IMG/VR virus record: IMGVR_UViG_2698536647_000010
Length of the DNA stretch: 12,502 nt
Strand: one strand, 5' to 3'
From: a virus
Lineage: Duplodnaviria; Heunggongvirae; Uroviricota; Caudoviricetes
Position 1 is the stretch's first letter. Each line of letters begins with the position of its first letter. Position numbers and translations under genes: made by a program. The notes beneath the pieces are model-generated. The model did no database searches. It was not told the origin of the DNA and was given only the letters and a program-made list of their open reading frames with translations. Positions 1,049-8,328 of the stretch are shown piece by piece.

Positions 1049-1547
1049 TTACTCCCTGACAGGGTTCGTAGGCCACTCAATATCAGGTGCAGTTGATGTA
1101 TCAACACGGTTCAGCAACACCCGATATTTTTTCCAGGCTTCCAGCAATGAGGTTTCTTCCTCCGTTGCGATCTCCAGATCTACAGCATCCTGAAGTGGCG
1201 CTATATGCTCACTGGCTACCTGCATCAGGCTGTTTTTTGTTTCTTCCGCCTCCCGGATCCGGAACAGTTTTTCTGCTTCCGTATCCTTCACCCAGGCTGT
1301 GCCGTTCCACTTCTGATATTCCCCTTCCGGCGATAACCAGGTGACATTTTCCGGTAACGAGCCAAGTTCAGAAATAAATAACGCGTCGCCGGAAGCCACG
1401 TTCTGGCGGTGCAATATCGGTACTGTTTGCTGGCAGACCTGTATGAGGCGGAATATATGCGTCACCTTCACCAATAAATTCATTAGTTCCGGCCAGCAGA
1501 TTATAAATTTTTATGGTCCGTGGTTGTTCACTCATTCTGAATGCCAT
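1049..1547 (-). pseudogene. tfa: Tail fibre assembly protein (lambda Tfa family), disrupted by an internal deletion/frameshift
   Basis: ATG at 1545-1547 overlaps the stop of the upstream fibre gene (TAATG arrangement). From it, [48 protein letters not shown] matches the recalled lambda/Rac Tfa N-terminus, then the frame stops after 59 codons (TGA 1368-1370). The conserved Tfa C-terminus ([13 protein letters not shown]...APDIEWP) continues in a different frame as the 1049-1483 ORF. About 29 aa of Tfa appear to be missing at the junction. Confidence 0.65.
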
Positions 1548-2581: not shown

Positions 2582-3343
2582 TCACTTTTCCGATACAACA
2601 CGGCGGGAAGAATCAGTAATCTGTCGAACAATATCCCGGTGCTTGTTCAGCTCCCGCAGCGCGGCGCAGACTCGCTCCCACTTCTGAACATCACTTTTCG
2701 CCCTGCGCAGCGCCAGGTTTGCCCTGCGAAGGGACGGAAAAATCAGCTCATCTGCTTGCGTTTCGGTAAACGATGGCAACGGCTGCACAATGTCCGCCAC
2801 AGTTTCTGTTTTAATTTCTTCCTGTGTTGCTGCGTCCCGGACTGGTAACGCAGCACCTGCTGGCTGAGGAAAGGCTTTACCATCCGTTTCCGCTACGGAT
2901 GCAGCTTCCGGCTCTGCCGGTAAATCAGCGCCCGGTATGCAGTAACGAAATTTACCGTCCTGATTAACGCGAATCAGACGACCTTTACTGATTGCCATTG
3001 CCAGCTTTGAAGCCACTTTGCGTGATGTGATGCCGAAAAACGTAGCCAGTTCATCCGCCGTTTGTGATCCGCGTTGTTCAATCGTTGCGGTTAAATCGCA
3101 CTCTGAGATTTTCGCTACTGTTGCTGTGGTGGTTTCTTCCGGCAGTTCTGCCTGCGCTGGCTGTTCCTGCTGAACGTTGTTATCAGCCACACGCCAGGTG
3201 TACGCGCTTTTATCAACGAAACCAGCCTTTTTCAGTTCCCATAGTTCGTTCAGCACTTCTTCACGACTGATATCAAGTCGCGCAGCCAGCTCTACCGACG
3301 TGGCTTTTCCCATCGCTTTCAGTGCGTCAAAAACAGTCTCCAT
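2582..3343 (-). CDS. Hypothetical protein (253 aa) with two winged-helix-like segments; position corresponds to the ren/nin region downstream of the P-like gene
   Basis: ATG at 3343 is preceded by GGGAGG at about 7 nt. Segments [30 protein letters not shown] and [33 protein letters not shown] look like HTH/winged-helix motifs. No family recognised. Confidence 0.55.
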
Positions 3344-3375
3344 AAATTTCCTCCCGGTAAAAATTACTTCTCAAC

Positions 3376-3837
3376 TCAAACAAACCCAGCCGCTTTCCGG
3401 CGCTCATATTCCTGTTTCAGCAGCTCAATTGGCGTTGGCCCCGACGGGCGTTTGGGTGCCGCCAGTTGTCGCCGGACTGGCGGAACGCTCAGGCCGTTAC
3501 TAACATGCTTTGCCCATTTCGTCAGCTGCCGTTCTGCAAGCCGTTTTAATTCCCCTTCGGTCATCTGGCGCTCAATCCCCTTTGAACGCATCTCAAGGCA
3601 AATGTGATACAGCACAGGCTGAGGCCACGGGTACTTATCACTTCCGTCATATCGCCAGGACTCATTGCGCCAGCGGCGGTACTCCTCCATCACAGCATCC
3701 ACCGTCAGACCGAATGGATTGGCTCCGCTTTCCGAAATCAGTGCCACAAACTCAGCCAGGTCCGGAGGCCATGTTTCACCCGCCCGGCAGCGGTCCATGC
3801 ACTGGCGGCAGACCTGTCGGATTTGCTGCTCAGTCAT
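3376..3837 (-). CDS. Replication protein P-like (lambda P family helicase loader), 153 aa
   Basis: Local similarity to recalled lambda P: a YPW-containing segment (DKYPWPQPVLYHI) and TEGELKRLAERQL resembling P's TDAELRRKAADEL. Start taken as the internal ATG at 3835-3837, which overlaps the upstream gene's stop (ATGACTGA), rather than the track's 4041 start that lies inside the preceding gene. No Walker A motif, so not DnaC-type. Confidence 0.55.
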   Translation of the reverse strand: MTEQQIRQVCRQCMDRCRAGETWPPDLAEFVALISESGANPFGLTVDAVMEEYRRWRNESWRYDGSDKYPWPQPVLYHICLEMRSKGIERQMTEGELKRLAERQLTKWAKHVSNGLSVPPVRRQLAAPKRPSGPTPIELLKQEYERRKAAGFV

Positions 3838-5733: not shown

Positions 5734-6195
5734 ATGAAAAAAACACGCGAAGTGATTGCAACTCCAGAAGCGAGCAAGAATTTAAAAGCCGCATGGAATG
5801 CAAGAAAAAAAGAGCTGAAGCTGACTCAAGAGCTGGCGGCTGAGTTGTTGGGATTCGAATCTCAAGGCACCGTTAGCCAGTATCTGAACGGCAAGATACC
5901 GGTAAATACCGACGCTGCGCTAAAATTTGCGGCTCTGTTAAAGGTAAAACCAGAGGACATTCGAGAAGACCTTAAAGACTTAATGAATTATGTAAGATCA
6001 TCAGATACTTATGATGATAACTTTTCAGGCAAAGGATGGAGGCTGGTCAATGAAGAACAGGCAGAGTTACTTAACCTCTTCGAGATTCTACCTGCGTCAG
6101 AAAAAGCCAAACTCCTTAACCAGCTACGTGGACTAAACAAGCTCTACGAGGAAGCCTTCGAGAACATGCTGGCACTAAAGAAACGTAACCAGTAG
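5734..6195 (+). CDS. Prophage immunity repressor, DicA/RacR-type XRE-family HTH protein (153 aa)
   Basis: HTH segment LTQELAAELLGFESQGTVSQYLNGK; C-terminal ELLNLFEILPASEKAKLLNQL resembles recalled DicA (ELLELFNALPESEQ). Divergent from the Cro-like gene and followed by the ydfABC-dicF-dicB cluster. No SD before the ATG, so possibly leaderless or weakly translated. Confidence 0.8.
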   Translation: MKKTREVIATPEASKNLKAAWNARKKELKLTQELAAELLGFESQGTVSQYLNGKIPVNTDAALKFAALLKVKPEDIREDLKDLMNYVRSSDTYDDNFSGKGWRLVNEEQAELLNLFEILPASEKAKLLNQLRGLNKLYEEAFENMLALKKRNQ

Positions 6196-6221
6196 CCACC
6201 GCTCACTACCCCATCCACAAC

Positions 6222-6251
6222 AAAAAAACCGACGTCTTAGTCGGTTTTTTT
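6222..6251 (+). terminator. Rho-independent terminator, symmetric and potentially bidirectional
   Basis: AAAAAAA-CCGAC-GTCTTA-GTCGG-TTTTTTT: a short GC stem flanked by A7 and T7 runs, directly after the repressor stop. Confidence 0.65.
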
Positions 6252-6348
6252 GTGCCATAACTTCTGCAAATCAGCTGTATAACTAATATTTTTCCCTTGA
6301 AAAAACATTTACATAGTTACCAAATCAAAAATATCATACGCCATACTA

Positions 6349-6763: not shown

Positions 6764-6982
6764 ATGCAGAAACGAGAACCCGTCATCATCGCGCCAGACT
6801 ATACCGATGATGAACTTTATGAGTGGATGCGCCAGAAAATTAATGCAGCGCAGGATCTGAAATGGGCCAATGAAGCCAGGACTAAGCAGGCTGAAAATCT
6901 GTCCGCTCTGGAGCAGGATATCACCAGGCTGGAAAAAGCAGCGGCATTAAGCATTGCCAGAATGATTACATACCCACGTTAA
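6764..6982 (+). CDS. ydfC: YdfC-like protein (72 aa)
   Basis: 72-aa ORF with GAGG about 7 nt upstream of the ATG. Assigned by size and synteny with ydfA/ydfB and dicF/dicB; the sequence itself was not independently recognised. Confidence 0.55.
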   Translation: MQKREPVIIAPDYTDDELYEWMRQKINAAQDLKWANEARTKQAENLSALEQDITRLEKAAALSIARMITYPR

Positions 6983-7004
6983 TAGCTAACCAACGAGGCT
7001 AATA

Positions 7005-7325
7005 ATGGAATTTAAAGATTTACCAATGCCATTCCAGGAAATGGCAGCGAATGTGGTTCGCTCTCAACTGGCGACTCTTGACCTGAGTACCGTAGAAAAA
7101 GAAACCATCGACAATATATCCGGTAACGTACGCCGAGCCTTTATCGGGCTGTACGAAGAGAAGCAGCTCTCTGATAACCAGGATTTACATGAAAAATACT
7201 TCCTGGATCTAATGGACCTCATTGATAAGGGGTTTGGCTTGTTAATGAAAAAGAAAGGGATTCGAATAGAACCCCTTGAAAATTACTTTGCAACAAAAAG
7301 CATTAATTCTTTTGATTCAAAATAA
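7005..7325 (+). CDS. Hypothetical protein (106 aa), unrecognised; first gene of a convergent pair between ydfC and dicF
   Basis: GAGG lies 6 nt before the ATG and the gene starts 22 nt after the ydfC-like stop, in the operon orientation. Acidic, probably helical protein. No homolog recalled. Confidence 0.55.
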   Translation: MEFKDLPMPFQEMAANVVRSQLATLDLSTVEKETIDNISGNVRRAFIGLYEEKQLSDNQDLHEKYFLDLMDLIDKGFGLLMKKKGIRIEPLENYFATKSINSFDSK

Positions 7326-7578
7326 GAGAATTAATTACAGACTTAACATGCTCTTTCTCATGATTGAAGCTCTCATGATTGAAAGTGCCGGGTTGAAGCG
7401 AGTCGATATAATCAACAAGACTCTGTCGTACGACTTCATTTTTATCCATAACAGATGCAAGAAATGAAATTGCTAAAAGAGTTATATCACTACGCGCCGC
7501 AGCATGTTGCAATGCTTTATCAAAATTATTAATCTGGCGTATCAGGGAGTTAATGATTTCATCATTTTCAGTCGACAT
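7303..7578 (-). CDS. Hypothetical protein (91 aa), unrecognised; antisense to the dicB operon, 3' end overlaps the preceding gene by 23 bp
   Basis: Strong SD AGGAGGG 5 nt before ATG (7576-7578); product MSTENDEIINSLIRQINNF... The longer track ORF (to 7911) has an Arg/Pro-rich, non-protein-like N-terminal extension, so the internal start is preferred. Confidence 0.5.
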   Translation of the reverse strand: MSTENDEIINSLIRQINNFDKALQHAAARSDITLLAISFLASVMDKNEVVRQSLVDYIDSLQPGTFNHESFNHEKEHVKSVINSLILNQKN

Positions 7579-7849
7579 TTCACCCTCCTGAGGGTTGGTG
7601 ATTAAGGAGTTCTCCACGGGTGAGGTGGAGTGCGTGCGCCGGACACGGGTGAGCATCCGGCACTGACAGTTTACTGAAAGGATATTTCCCTGAAAAGTCA
7701 GACCATAACGCGAAAGCGCACGGCGAGGTAGCTGGTTCATAGATAGCCTGTCGTTAAATTTTCGTCGATCGTGCGCTTCCGGTTGTGGCAATCCGCGAAA
7801 TGGCGCGGCGGTAAGTATGGCGGGGTTATTCCTTCCCCGTTGAGGACAC

Positions 7850-7889
7850 CGGGTTGTCAGGTTGACCATACGCTTAAGTGACAACCCCG
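7850..7889 (+). other. Hairpin about 24 nt upstream of DicF (possible processing structure of the DicF precursor)
   Basis: Inverted repeat GGGTTGTCA (7851-7859) and TGACAACCC (7880-7888) with a loop of about 20 nt. Confidence 0.3.
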
Positions 7890-7912
7890 CTGCAACGCCC
7901 TCTGTTATCAAT

Positions 7913-7965
7913 TTTCTGGTGACGTTTGGCGGTATCAGTTTTACTCCGTGACTGCTCTGCCGCCG
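7913..7965 (+). ncRNA. dicF: DicF small RNA (cell-division inhibitor sRNA that targets ftsZ mRNA)
   Basis: TTTCTGGTGACGTTTGGCGGTATCAGTTTTACTCCGTGACTGCTCTGCCGCC followed by a T-run (7966-7970) matches the recalled E. coli DicF sequence almost base for base. It lies about 175 nt upstream of dicB, as in Qin. Confidence 0.85.
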
Positions 7966-8139
7966 TTTTTAAAGTGAATTTTGTGATGCGGTGAATGCGG
8001 CTGAGCGCACGCGGAACAGTTAAAAACAAAAACAGTGTTATGGGTGGATTCTCTGTATCCGACGTTAATTGTTAACTGGTTAACGTCACCTGGAGGCACC
8101 AGGCACTGCATCACAAAATTCATTGTTGAGGACGCGATA

Positions 8140-8328
8140 ATGAAAACGTTATTACCAAACGTTAATACGTCTGAAGGTTGTTTTGAAATTGGTGTCACTA
8201 TCAGTAACCCTGTATTTACTGAAGATGCCATTAACAAGAGAAAACAAGAACGGGAGCTATTAAATAAAATATGCATTGTTTCAATGCTGGCTCGTTTACG
8301 TCTGATGCCAAAAGGATGTGCACAATGA
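8140..8328 (+). CDS. dicB: DicB, cell division inhibitor (MinC-dependent), 62 aa
   Basis: Translation MKTLLPNVNTSEGCFEIGVTISNPVFTEDAINKRKQERELLNKICIVSMLARLRLMPKGCAQ matches recalled DicB. The track ORF starts upstream at 8035 from a non-ATG start; the ATG at 8140 is taken as the true start. Confidence 0.9.
   Translation: MKTLLPNVNTSEGCFEIGVTISNPVFTEDAINKRKQERELLNKICIVSMLARLRLMPKGCAQ

Follow-up and report, generated by a model that had tools for sequence, protein, structure and literature searches.

A convergent gene pair and a conserved antisense leader in the dicBF-type early operon of a Qin/Rac-like prophage

The window, as we call the whole stretch of 12,502 nucleotides (nt) analysed here, comes from the IMG/VR virus record IMGVR_UViG_2698536647_000010 (Caudoviricetes) and corresponds to the early region of a Qin/Rac-type lambdoid prophage. 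Between its ydfC gene and the gene of the small RNA (sRNA) DicF, two small open reading frames (ORFs) face each other, and their 3′ ends share 23 base pairs (bp). The one that runs against the operon, ORF2, lies behind a structured leader, and we discuss here what such a unit may do for a lysogen.

The convergent pair and its distribution

Three features define the locus:
7005–7325, plus strand: ORF1, 106 amino acids (aa), with its ATG 22 nt past the ydfC stop (6982)
7303–7578, minus strand: ORF2, 91 aa, antisense to the operon
about 7003–7592: stretch of 590 bp without counterpart in the Qin prophage of Escherichia coli K-12 (pairwise alignment; boundaries read from the sequence)

The 590-bp stretch is exactly ORF1, ORF2 and the ribosome-binding site of ORF2. 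On alignment to K-12 Qin its flanks are ~97–99% identical, and the spacer from ydfC to dicF measures 931 nt in the window against 340 nt in MG1655. An earlier note on this DNA, made from the sequence alone, had described a convergent pair in a spacer of about 930 bp, longer than that of MG1655. This observation is confirmed: the coordinates of the ORFs, the 22-nt gap and the 23-bp overlap were given correctly, and the longer spacer has sharp boundaries on alignment. Between AGGAGGG and the ATG of ORF2 the note counted 5 nt, where there are 4 (AGGAGGG at 7589–7583, ATG at 7578). It also called both ORFs unrecognised, which stands as far as function goes and does not for annotation, the NCBI pipeline having them as hypothetical proteins (WP_033549021.1 and WP_000102678.1).

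When the window is compared with a copy that is 84% identical in DNA (L003), the ratio of non-synonymous to synonymous substitution rates (dN/dS) of ORF2 is 0.28, the lowest of the six frames, with length unchanged. For ORF1 the overall ratio is 0.21. Among homologues that span the whole ORF2 protein every length variant is in frame, and relatives with 28% identity are found at the same position and on the same strand. Judging from these comparisons, we take ORF1 and ORF2 to be real protein genes under purifying selection because of their low dN/dS and of the in-frame length variants. The frame of ORF2 is open further upstream, for 202 codons (7303–7911, minus strand), across the conserved dicF-precursor region, and a 145-aa form is annotated in many records (P0002, 481 member sequences). 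We rejected both the 202-aa and the 145-aa extensions, as it is the 91-aa start that comes with a ribosome-binding site and lines up with the starts in distant relatives; the 145-aa annotation looks like an over-extended gene call. Inside ORF2 a perfect 13-nt direct repeat, TCTCATGATTGAA, appears twice, 15 nt apart (7356–7383), and encodes FNHE-S-FNHE. One copy is absent in some homologues, as an in-frame 5-aa deletion (P0004).

Among 5426 complete E. coli genomes, 198 contain ORF2 DNA, which falls into two allele groups (~99% and ~84% identical), and the whole 590-bp cassette is likewise found in 198. The earlier note had proposed to look for conservation of the pair across genomes, and the two are indeed conserved together, ORF2 being always accompanied by ORF1 in this set. 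ORF1-family DNA occupies the same site in 1357 of the 5426, mostly in a 124-aa form with nothing on the other strand. Carriers of the cassette include at least one O25:H4 genome and many human clinical isolates. Four of the 201 places of ORF2 are not chromosomal and belong to plasmids of 195–217 kb (hits H110 and H126).

What ORF2 belongs to is best seen through the antisense gene found at the same place in strain E-1246 (L007), a member of phrog_18692, to which it is 28% identical over 86 aa, end to end (pairwise BLASTP, E-value 9e-6); matched directly against the phrog_18692 profile, it scores only weakly (E 0.022). A joint ORF2/phrog_18692 profile, run against 1.84 billion representative proteins, retrieved only 20 of them, comprising both groups and relatives in other genera. 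These relatives, of ~90–93 aa, are 22–36% identical to ORF2 and have in common the motifs R-x-D-I-x-L...S-A-L, R-E, E-K-x-H and S-V-x-L-P. On the strength of these alignments we regard ORF2 as a distant member of the phrog_18692 family. Its AlphaFold2 model has three helices, with a predicted local distance difference test score (pLDDT) of 73.

The contexts in which relatives of ORF2 appear are all temperate elements: a Salmonella Rac/Gifsy-like prophage (L015–L017), two P2-like prophages that carry int, C and cox (L009, L014), two lambdoid immunity regions, next to cI (L012, L013), and an integrase-flanked island (L010, L011). They oppose the early operon wherever such an operon is visible and, in L007, L009 and L014–L017, the member is antisense to it and overlaps the 3′ end of a forward gene by 23–44 nt.

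Predicted promoter, leader and cargo slot

The signals that surround ORF2, all on its own strand, are these:
7668–7696, minus strand: predicted ORF2 promoter, read by us, with −35 TTTTCA (7696–7691), a 17-nt spacer and −10 TAAACT (7673–7668)
7638–7661, minus strand: leader hairpin 1, GCCGGATGCTCACCCGTGTCCGGC, with a stem that does not vary among the leader-bearing loci
7612–7630, minus strand: leader hairpin 2, CTCCAC...GTGGAG, which covaries across phages, its sequence changing while pairing is kept
7605–7609, minus strand: anti-Shine-Dalgarno CTCCT, 5′ arm of hairpin 3, the innermost pair going from U-A to A-U in 6 of 13 sequences
7583–7589, minus strand: ribosome-binding site of ORF2, AGGAGGG, 3′ arm of hairpin 3
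7245–7277, minus strand: terminator-like hairpin (7277–7255) with T-run (7254–7245), ~25 nt past the ORF2 stop; the plus strand encodes ORF1 residues KKKGIRIEPL

Upstream of ORF2-family genes, 85–220 nt are conserved in DNA across phages whose proteins can barely be aligned (22–36% identity). In the window, where transcription would start near 7662, the leader is ~85 nt long and forms three hairpins. It also precedes the relatives of ORF2 in Salmonella, Edwardsiella, Pluralibacter and P2-like phages; all members of the family that we examined share a related leader, which is diverged in L010–L013. Hairpin 3 pairs CUCCU (7609–7605) with the ribosome-binding site (7589–7585), and this site is paired in every leader variant that was folded. 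In an alignment of 13 sequences, 95.7% of the cells are paired, against 33–44% for slid partners; three pairs display compensatory change, and the covariation score was reached by none of 500 shuffles. Rfam gave nothing above chance level (E > 3) for the leader on the minus strand, 7579–7700. A −10-like hexamer, often with TGn in other phages, stands 4–9 nt before hairpin 1 even when the DNA upstream is unrelated, one variant of the promoter among leader loci being TTGAGA-17-GATAAT. Near the ORF2 promoter no repressor-operator-like repeat was found, and no LexA box was seen by eye. At the other end, terminator-like hairpins equivalent to that of the window follow the relatives of ORF2 in L009 and L014; counted over 45 distinct sequences downstream of the genes placed behind the leader, which we call its cargo, they occur in 20 on the cargo strand and in 2 on the opposite strand. 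From these signals we predict that ORF2 forms a transcription unit of its own, on the minus strand and antisense to the early operon in which it is embedded.

We assembled 149 loci with this leader, from a scan with the hairpin-1 motif (one genome per species and a collection of viral contigs) and from loci fetched earlier. A called cargo ORF directly follows the same ribosome-binding site in 70 of them. Another 45 are K-12-like, the leader ending after hairpin 2 with neither ORF1 nor cargo, and 19 are O26-like, with ORF1 alone in a form of 124 aa; ten are unclassified, several apparently with cargo, and five run off the end of their contig. In this set the cargo falls into 12 unrelated families of small soluble proteins (30–104 aa), the ORF2 family being the largest, with 21 loci. 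None of the cargo families has a match in Pfam or PADLOC. Neither do they, or ORF1, contain a membrane segment: over 19-residue stretches, hydropathy peaks below 1.0 in ORF1, in the representative of the ORF2 family and in all the other cargo families, which argues against toxins of the Hok or SieB kind. Presence or absence of cargo varies among closely related phages with conserved flanks. Across the 149 loci the family of the cargo corresponds almost one-to-one with the C-terminus of its convergent partner, and this match holds for the divergent pairs formed by the window and L009, by L007 and L015, and by L006 and L028.

In L019, L020 and L028 (from Edwardsiella and a probable contaminant contig) the same leader precedes a peptide of ~30 aa, rich in proline, behind which comes a protein of 156 aa whose long hydrophobic stretch looks like two membrane spans. 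Neither the peptide nor the protein matched any family.

The partner itself, ORF1 in the window, is a modular protein:
7005–7163, plus strand: N-domain, residues 1–53, nearly invariant (dN/dS 0.11) and common to proteins with unrelated C-terminal halves
7164–7322, plus strand: C-domain, residues 54–106, swappable (dN/dS 0.2–0.46)

ORF1 matches phrog_6937 over its full length (E 8.3e-68, residues 1–106 against profile positions 1–106 of 124) and by this match is a member of that family; its AlphaFold2 model is helical (pLDDT 67.6). The 106-aa protein of the window is the 109-aa form in which CAA has become TAA three codons before the usual stop. Residues 58–92 of its C-domain are ~40% identical to the C-terminus of a CII-like helix-turn-helix (HTH) protein of 214 aa in the P2-like phage at L009, and there this protein is convergent with a relative of ORF2. 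In E-1246, the C-domain of the ORF1 relative is 60% identical to the product of a free-standing 71-aa gene, convergent and overlapping with the Salmonella relative of ORF2 (dS 1.6, dN 0.31, ratio 0.19). A third pair, common to E. coli and Edwardsiella, associates a phrog_8894 cargo with a forward gene ending in YHETMVKALRM. The C-domain might be thought of as a by-product of reading the antisense of the cargo's 3′ flank; we rejected this on account of dN/dS values of 0.19–0.46 and of the free-standing 71-aa version. Where PNAGTEARIW, the most conserved peptide in the partner of L007 and L015, is encoded, the DNA forms a near-perfect inverted repeat of 9 bp, CCAAATGCA...TGCATTTGG, a hairpin that sits downstream of the cargo stop, on the cargo strand.

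We can now return to K-12. Its Qin prophage keeps the predicted promoter of ORF2 and leader hairpins 1 and 2, without the ribosome-binding arm, ORF1 or ORF2. The K-12 state is probably a deletion, rather than the window an insertion, because the promoter-like site and hairpins 1–2 are kept there while the complete leader occurs in distant genera. The earlier note had seen in the longer spacer an inserted moron cassette. The moron-like anatomy of ORF2 and the difference in length agree with this, whereas ORF1 is no rare insert and it is K-12 that looks deleted. Even in K-12, the complement of the 'untranslated' region upstream of dicF (window 7593–7913; K-12 Qin, L002, ~3060–3382) holds the promoter-like site and hairpins 1–2. 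By its sequence, K-12 might still make an antisense RNA that runs into ydfC at its 3′ end. A terminator-like hairpin is seen in the window at 6959–6942, minus strand.

The surrounding operon

The operon that ORF2 opposes contains the following landmarks:
5734–6195, plus strand: short HTH repressor (153 aa), no S24 peptidase domain matched
6220–6253: bidirectional terminator
6308–6337, plus strand: dicBp-like promoter TTTACA-18-TATCAT (10 of 12 consensus matches in a promoter scan), which would drive ydfA-ydfB-ydfC-ORF1-dicF-dicB
6764–6982, plus strand: ydfC, the left flank common to K-12 Qin
7914–7965, plus strand: DicF sRNA (Rfam RF00039, 72.5 bits against a gathering threshold of 48)

On the plus strand the order is repressor, terminator, dicBp-like promoter, ydfA, ydfB, ydfC, ORF1, DicF, dicB (8140–8328), a ydfD-like gene, an exonuclease gene, xis and int; in the near-identical strain EC931 the prophage adjoins ompW. 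The position of the promoter agrees with that of dicBp, upstream of ydfA (PMC10448788). In K-12, DicF and DicB come solely from the long dicBp transcript, which is then processed by RNases III and E (PMC10448788), and in the window the plus-strand transcript that yields DicF must cross the antisense of ORF2 and of its leader. Since no S24 peptidase domain was matched in the repressor, induction probably requires an anti-repressor, as DicA requires Rem (PMC10448788); no candidate for this role was identified in the window.

Other RNA matches are found in and around this region. Between dicF and dicB, the sRNA STnc100 gives a sub-threshold match (7977–8117, plus strand; 35.7 bits against a gathering score of 47). 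In L015 a terminator-like hairpin, GGCGGTACCAG...CTGGTATCCGCCC then T's, lies at ~3700–3800, where the terminator of DicF would be; it may be a diverged DicF-like sRNA, and no DicF match is obtained there at the Rfam threshold. Just downstream of the dicF region in E-1246, isrK and C4 antisense RNA matches stand side by side (3051–3239), adjoining the gene of a Rha-family regulator. Far upstream in the window, an IS009 match (1092–1290, minus strand, 224.5 bits) overlaps a gene whose product shares its C-terminal segment with the product of ORF 1–270. We take both products to resemble tail-fibre assembly proteins.

Possible roles of the antisense unit

Searches of Pfam, PHROGs, NCBIfam and PADLOC with both proteins and with the other cargo and partner proteins returned only PHROGs annotated 'unknown function', including phrog_18692 and phrog_6937. 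Matches to the defence models of PADLOC 2.0 were at noise level (E 0.014–0.055), PDB sequence searches with single proteins and profiles gave nothing below E 0.05, and the AlphaFold2 models of ORF2 and ORF1, set against the PDB and viral structures, met generic helical bundles only (E > 0.8). The earlier note had listed toxin–antitoxin, exclusion, anti-defence and abortive-infection modules as typical of such pairs; no search puts either protein in a family of this kind, and its functional list therefore stays conjecture. Taken as a whole, the interpretation offered there is partly supported.

In published work, genes antisense to lytic genes and endowed with their own promoter are treated as the signature of accessory loci expressed in the lysogen (PMC7067206). 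Our unit has in common with morons and with the prophage hotspots of P2 and P4 (PMC9122126; for antisense loci, PMC7067206) presence or absence among close relatives and many unrelated cargoes at one position; its predicted promoter and terminator would, in addition, give it the independence of such units within a phage operon. It differs from hotspots in that the slot is defined by a conserved structured 5′ leader hiding the ribosome-binding site, antisense inside the early operon, and in that each cargo overlaps the part of the forward gene that encodes its matched C-terminal domain; none of the cargo proteins matches a known defence protein. In lambda, sieB and esc are laid out within the early-left operon. 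There, and in P22, the likeness is that of a gene placed inside this operon and transcribed in the lysogen from a promoter of its own, in a phage that carries its own escape; the position and orientation of ORF2 fit such a gene, its promoter being a prediction. In P22 an antisense RNA, sas, is also involved (cited in PMC7067206). SieB is a membrane protein, however, whereas ORF2 and all the cargo are soluble, with no similarity to it in sequence or fold and no Pfam or PHROG match of ORF1 or ORF2 carrying a SieB annotation; and Esc is an internal translation product of sieB, whereas the candidate partner here is a separate convergent gene overlapping the 3′ end. The BstA/aba pair (PMC8585504) likewise joins a prophage factor active in the lysogen to a linked element sparing the phage's own lytic growth. 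BstA is a large protein, while aba consists of DNA; homology to our unit is absent, and a defence activity of ORF2 is hypothetical. The OOP RNA of lambda is a short convergent transcript overlapping the 3′ end of an early gene, as here, but it is non-coding, whereas our unit encodes a conserved protein. The unit is moron-like and sieB-like in its placement, and the comparisons made here put it outside the SieB, toxin–antitoxin and known defence families.

We propose that ORF2 is a leader-gated accessory unit of the lysogen, switched off by the early operon with the C-domain of ORF1 as antidote, in the manner of SieB/Esc or BstA/aba. The support is architectural, and we give this reading a probability of roughly two in five. 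In the lysogen, while the early promoter is repressed, ORF2 would be transcribed from its own predicted promoter and its translation gated by the leader. The protein would be an accessory factor that benefits the lysogen, most plausibly by exclusion of, or defence against, other phages, or by inhibiting a protein of the host. Once the early operon fires, ORF2 would be shut off in three ways: converging transcription would collide, the fully complementary RNA would pair with the ORF2 messenger, and the C-domain of ORF1 would act as the phage's own cognate neutraliser or partner.

Several observations weigh against this proposal. No sequence or fold search links either protein to a defence, exclusion or toxin family. 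The predicted ORF2 promoter is a weak match to the consensus, at 8 of 12 positions; it lies below the threshold of the promoter scan, which did not list it. The pairing of cargo with partner could be plain physical linkage, because the genes overlap and linkage alone would hold them together; many of the leader loci sampled are near-clonal; and the motif MK.KG, which makes up part of the similarity between partner domains, is the reverse complement of the cargo terminator. A C-domain of the window's type is also found with a different cargo (L005) or with none (O26-type, L004), which weakens any strict one-to-one pairing of the ORF1 C-domain with ORF2, and the relatives of ORF2 in L010–L013 have no overlapping partner gene. 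Finally, the wobble pairs of the leader give conflicting signals on the strand that its hairpins serve, part of them favouring that of the cargo and part that of dicF; transcription is expected on both strands.

The alternative that survives best, though we hold it to be unlikely, places the function in the RNA. Transcription from the leader promoter, and the antisense RNA that results, would damp leaky read-through into the toxic dicF and dicB (or kil), by promoter interference or by cleavage of the duplex, the proteins being secondary passengers. That K-12 Qin lost its cargo and yet keeps the promoter-like site and hairpins 1–2 speaks for this, as does a leader far more conserved than the proteins behind it, in a unit that, in the lambdoid examples, is always upstream of dicF, dicB or kil-type genes. 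A precedent is the OOP RNA of lambda, which is antisense to cII at its 3′ end (cited in PMC7067206), and the dicBF transcript is a known substrate of RNase III (PMC10448788). The earlier note had likewise suggested that the antisense gene could modulate how much DicF and DicB is made. The known RNase III site, ~190 nt before the 3′ end of DicF (near 7776), lies outside the predicted antisense transcript, however; the cargo proteins are under purifying selection; a conserved ribosome-binding site with its sequestering hairpin makes sense for translation alone; and leaders are found in P2-like phages and beside cI with no dicF detected nearby.

ORF2 and ORF1 might instead regulate the choice between lysis and lysogeny, for example as anti-repressor and anti-anti-repressor acting on a short, non-cleavable repressor of the DicA type. 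We consider this improbable. The window's repressor, without a matched S24 peptidase domain, would fit such a scheme, since its induction probably depends on an anti-repressor, like that of DicA on Rem (PMC10448788). Proteins of this class are small and soluble, and the 214-aa partner in L009 has a CII-like helix-turn-helix domain. In P2-like phages, moreover, the unit points back towards C and int, an orientation that is also that of the establishment promoter of phage 186. Yet relatives of ORF2 also sit beside cleavable cI repressors of the S24 type, no operator-like repeat is found near the ORF2 promoter, and twelve unrelated families in one slot typify accessory cargo, not the core component of a switch. 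Nor does either protein resemble Rem: BLASTP of Rem against ORF1 and all cargo-family representatives, including a member of the ORF2 family, had a best E of 1.2, with none to ORF1 or to the ORF2 family. We set the identity of anti-repressor aside for this reason, and because the Gifsy anti-repressor genes lie elsewhere in those prophages.

There is little to recommend an addiction module, one protein being toxic and the other its antidote, beyond the fact that these are small proteins, tightly linked and co-inherited in a prophage, and that such genes are common in prophages of the Qin type (relBE and hokD are nearby in K-12). The two genes are convergent, rather than the co-transcribed neighbours of a type II system, and Pfam, NCBIfam, PADLOC and PDB sequences reveal no toxin or antitoxin family or domain in them. 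A type I system, similar to Hok/Sok, would involve a small hydrophobic membrane toxin under the control of an antisense RNA; neither protein has a membrane segment, and both strands encode conserved soluble proteins. The ORF1 C-domain type also occurs without ORF2, and relatives of ORF2 occur without partner.

Least credible of all, that ORF2 is a decaying or silent remnant whose conservation belongs to the dicF precursor on the other strand could invoke the weak promoter match, hairpins that form equally well on the plus strand with similar folding energies, and two leader variants with wobble pairs only on the dicF-sense strand, but it has against it a dN/dS of 0.28, a frame intact in 198 genomes and in the 84%-identical copy, a family recognisable at 22–36% identity by its conserved motifs in other genera, and leaders present where no dicF is detected.

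To come back to the lysogen accessory unit that we favour, a wider statement, doubtful at this stage, can be derived from it. Antisense cargo slots marked by the conserved promoter and three-hairpin leader would form a class of their own, and a new one, in the early operons of lambdoid and P2-like temperate phages of enterobacteria, holding small riboregulated proteins as lysogen cargo, each with a cognate domain on the opposite strand that switches it off in the lytic phase; the 'untranslated' dicF region of K-12 would be a stranded promoter and leader, which might still fire antisense RNA into ydfC. The open-access literature yielded no description of the antisense unit, the leader or the slot, and there is a reasonable chance that leader, slot and overlapping partner amount to something new.

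If this is true, we would be dealing with a family of two-part systems built from convergent overlapping genes, an unusual link between a factor and its antidote. Among the loci of cryptic prophages the dicBF operon is a textbook case, yet nothing has so far been described on its opposite strand. An active antisense unit would mean that DicF and DicB, the division inhibitors, are subject to a further level of control, and would give a reason for the conservation of the ~330 nt of 'untranslated' RNA upstream of dicF. It would also provide, from a single DNA motif, a list of small soluble prophage proteins in at least 12 families, and it is from lists of this sort that the search for new exclusion, anti-defence or host-inhibitor proteins usually starts.

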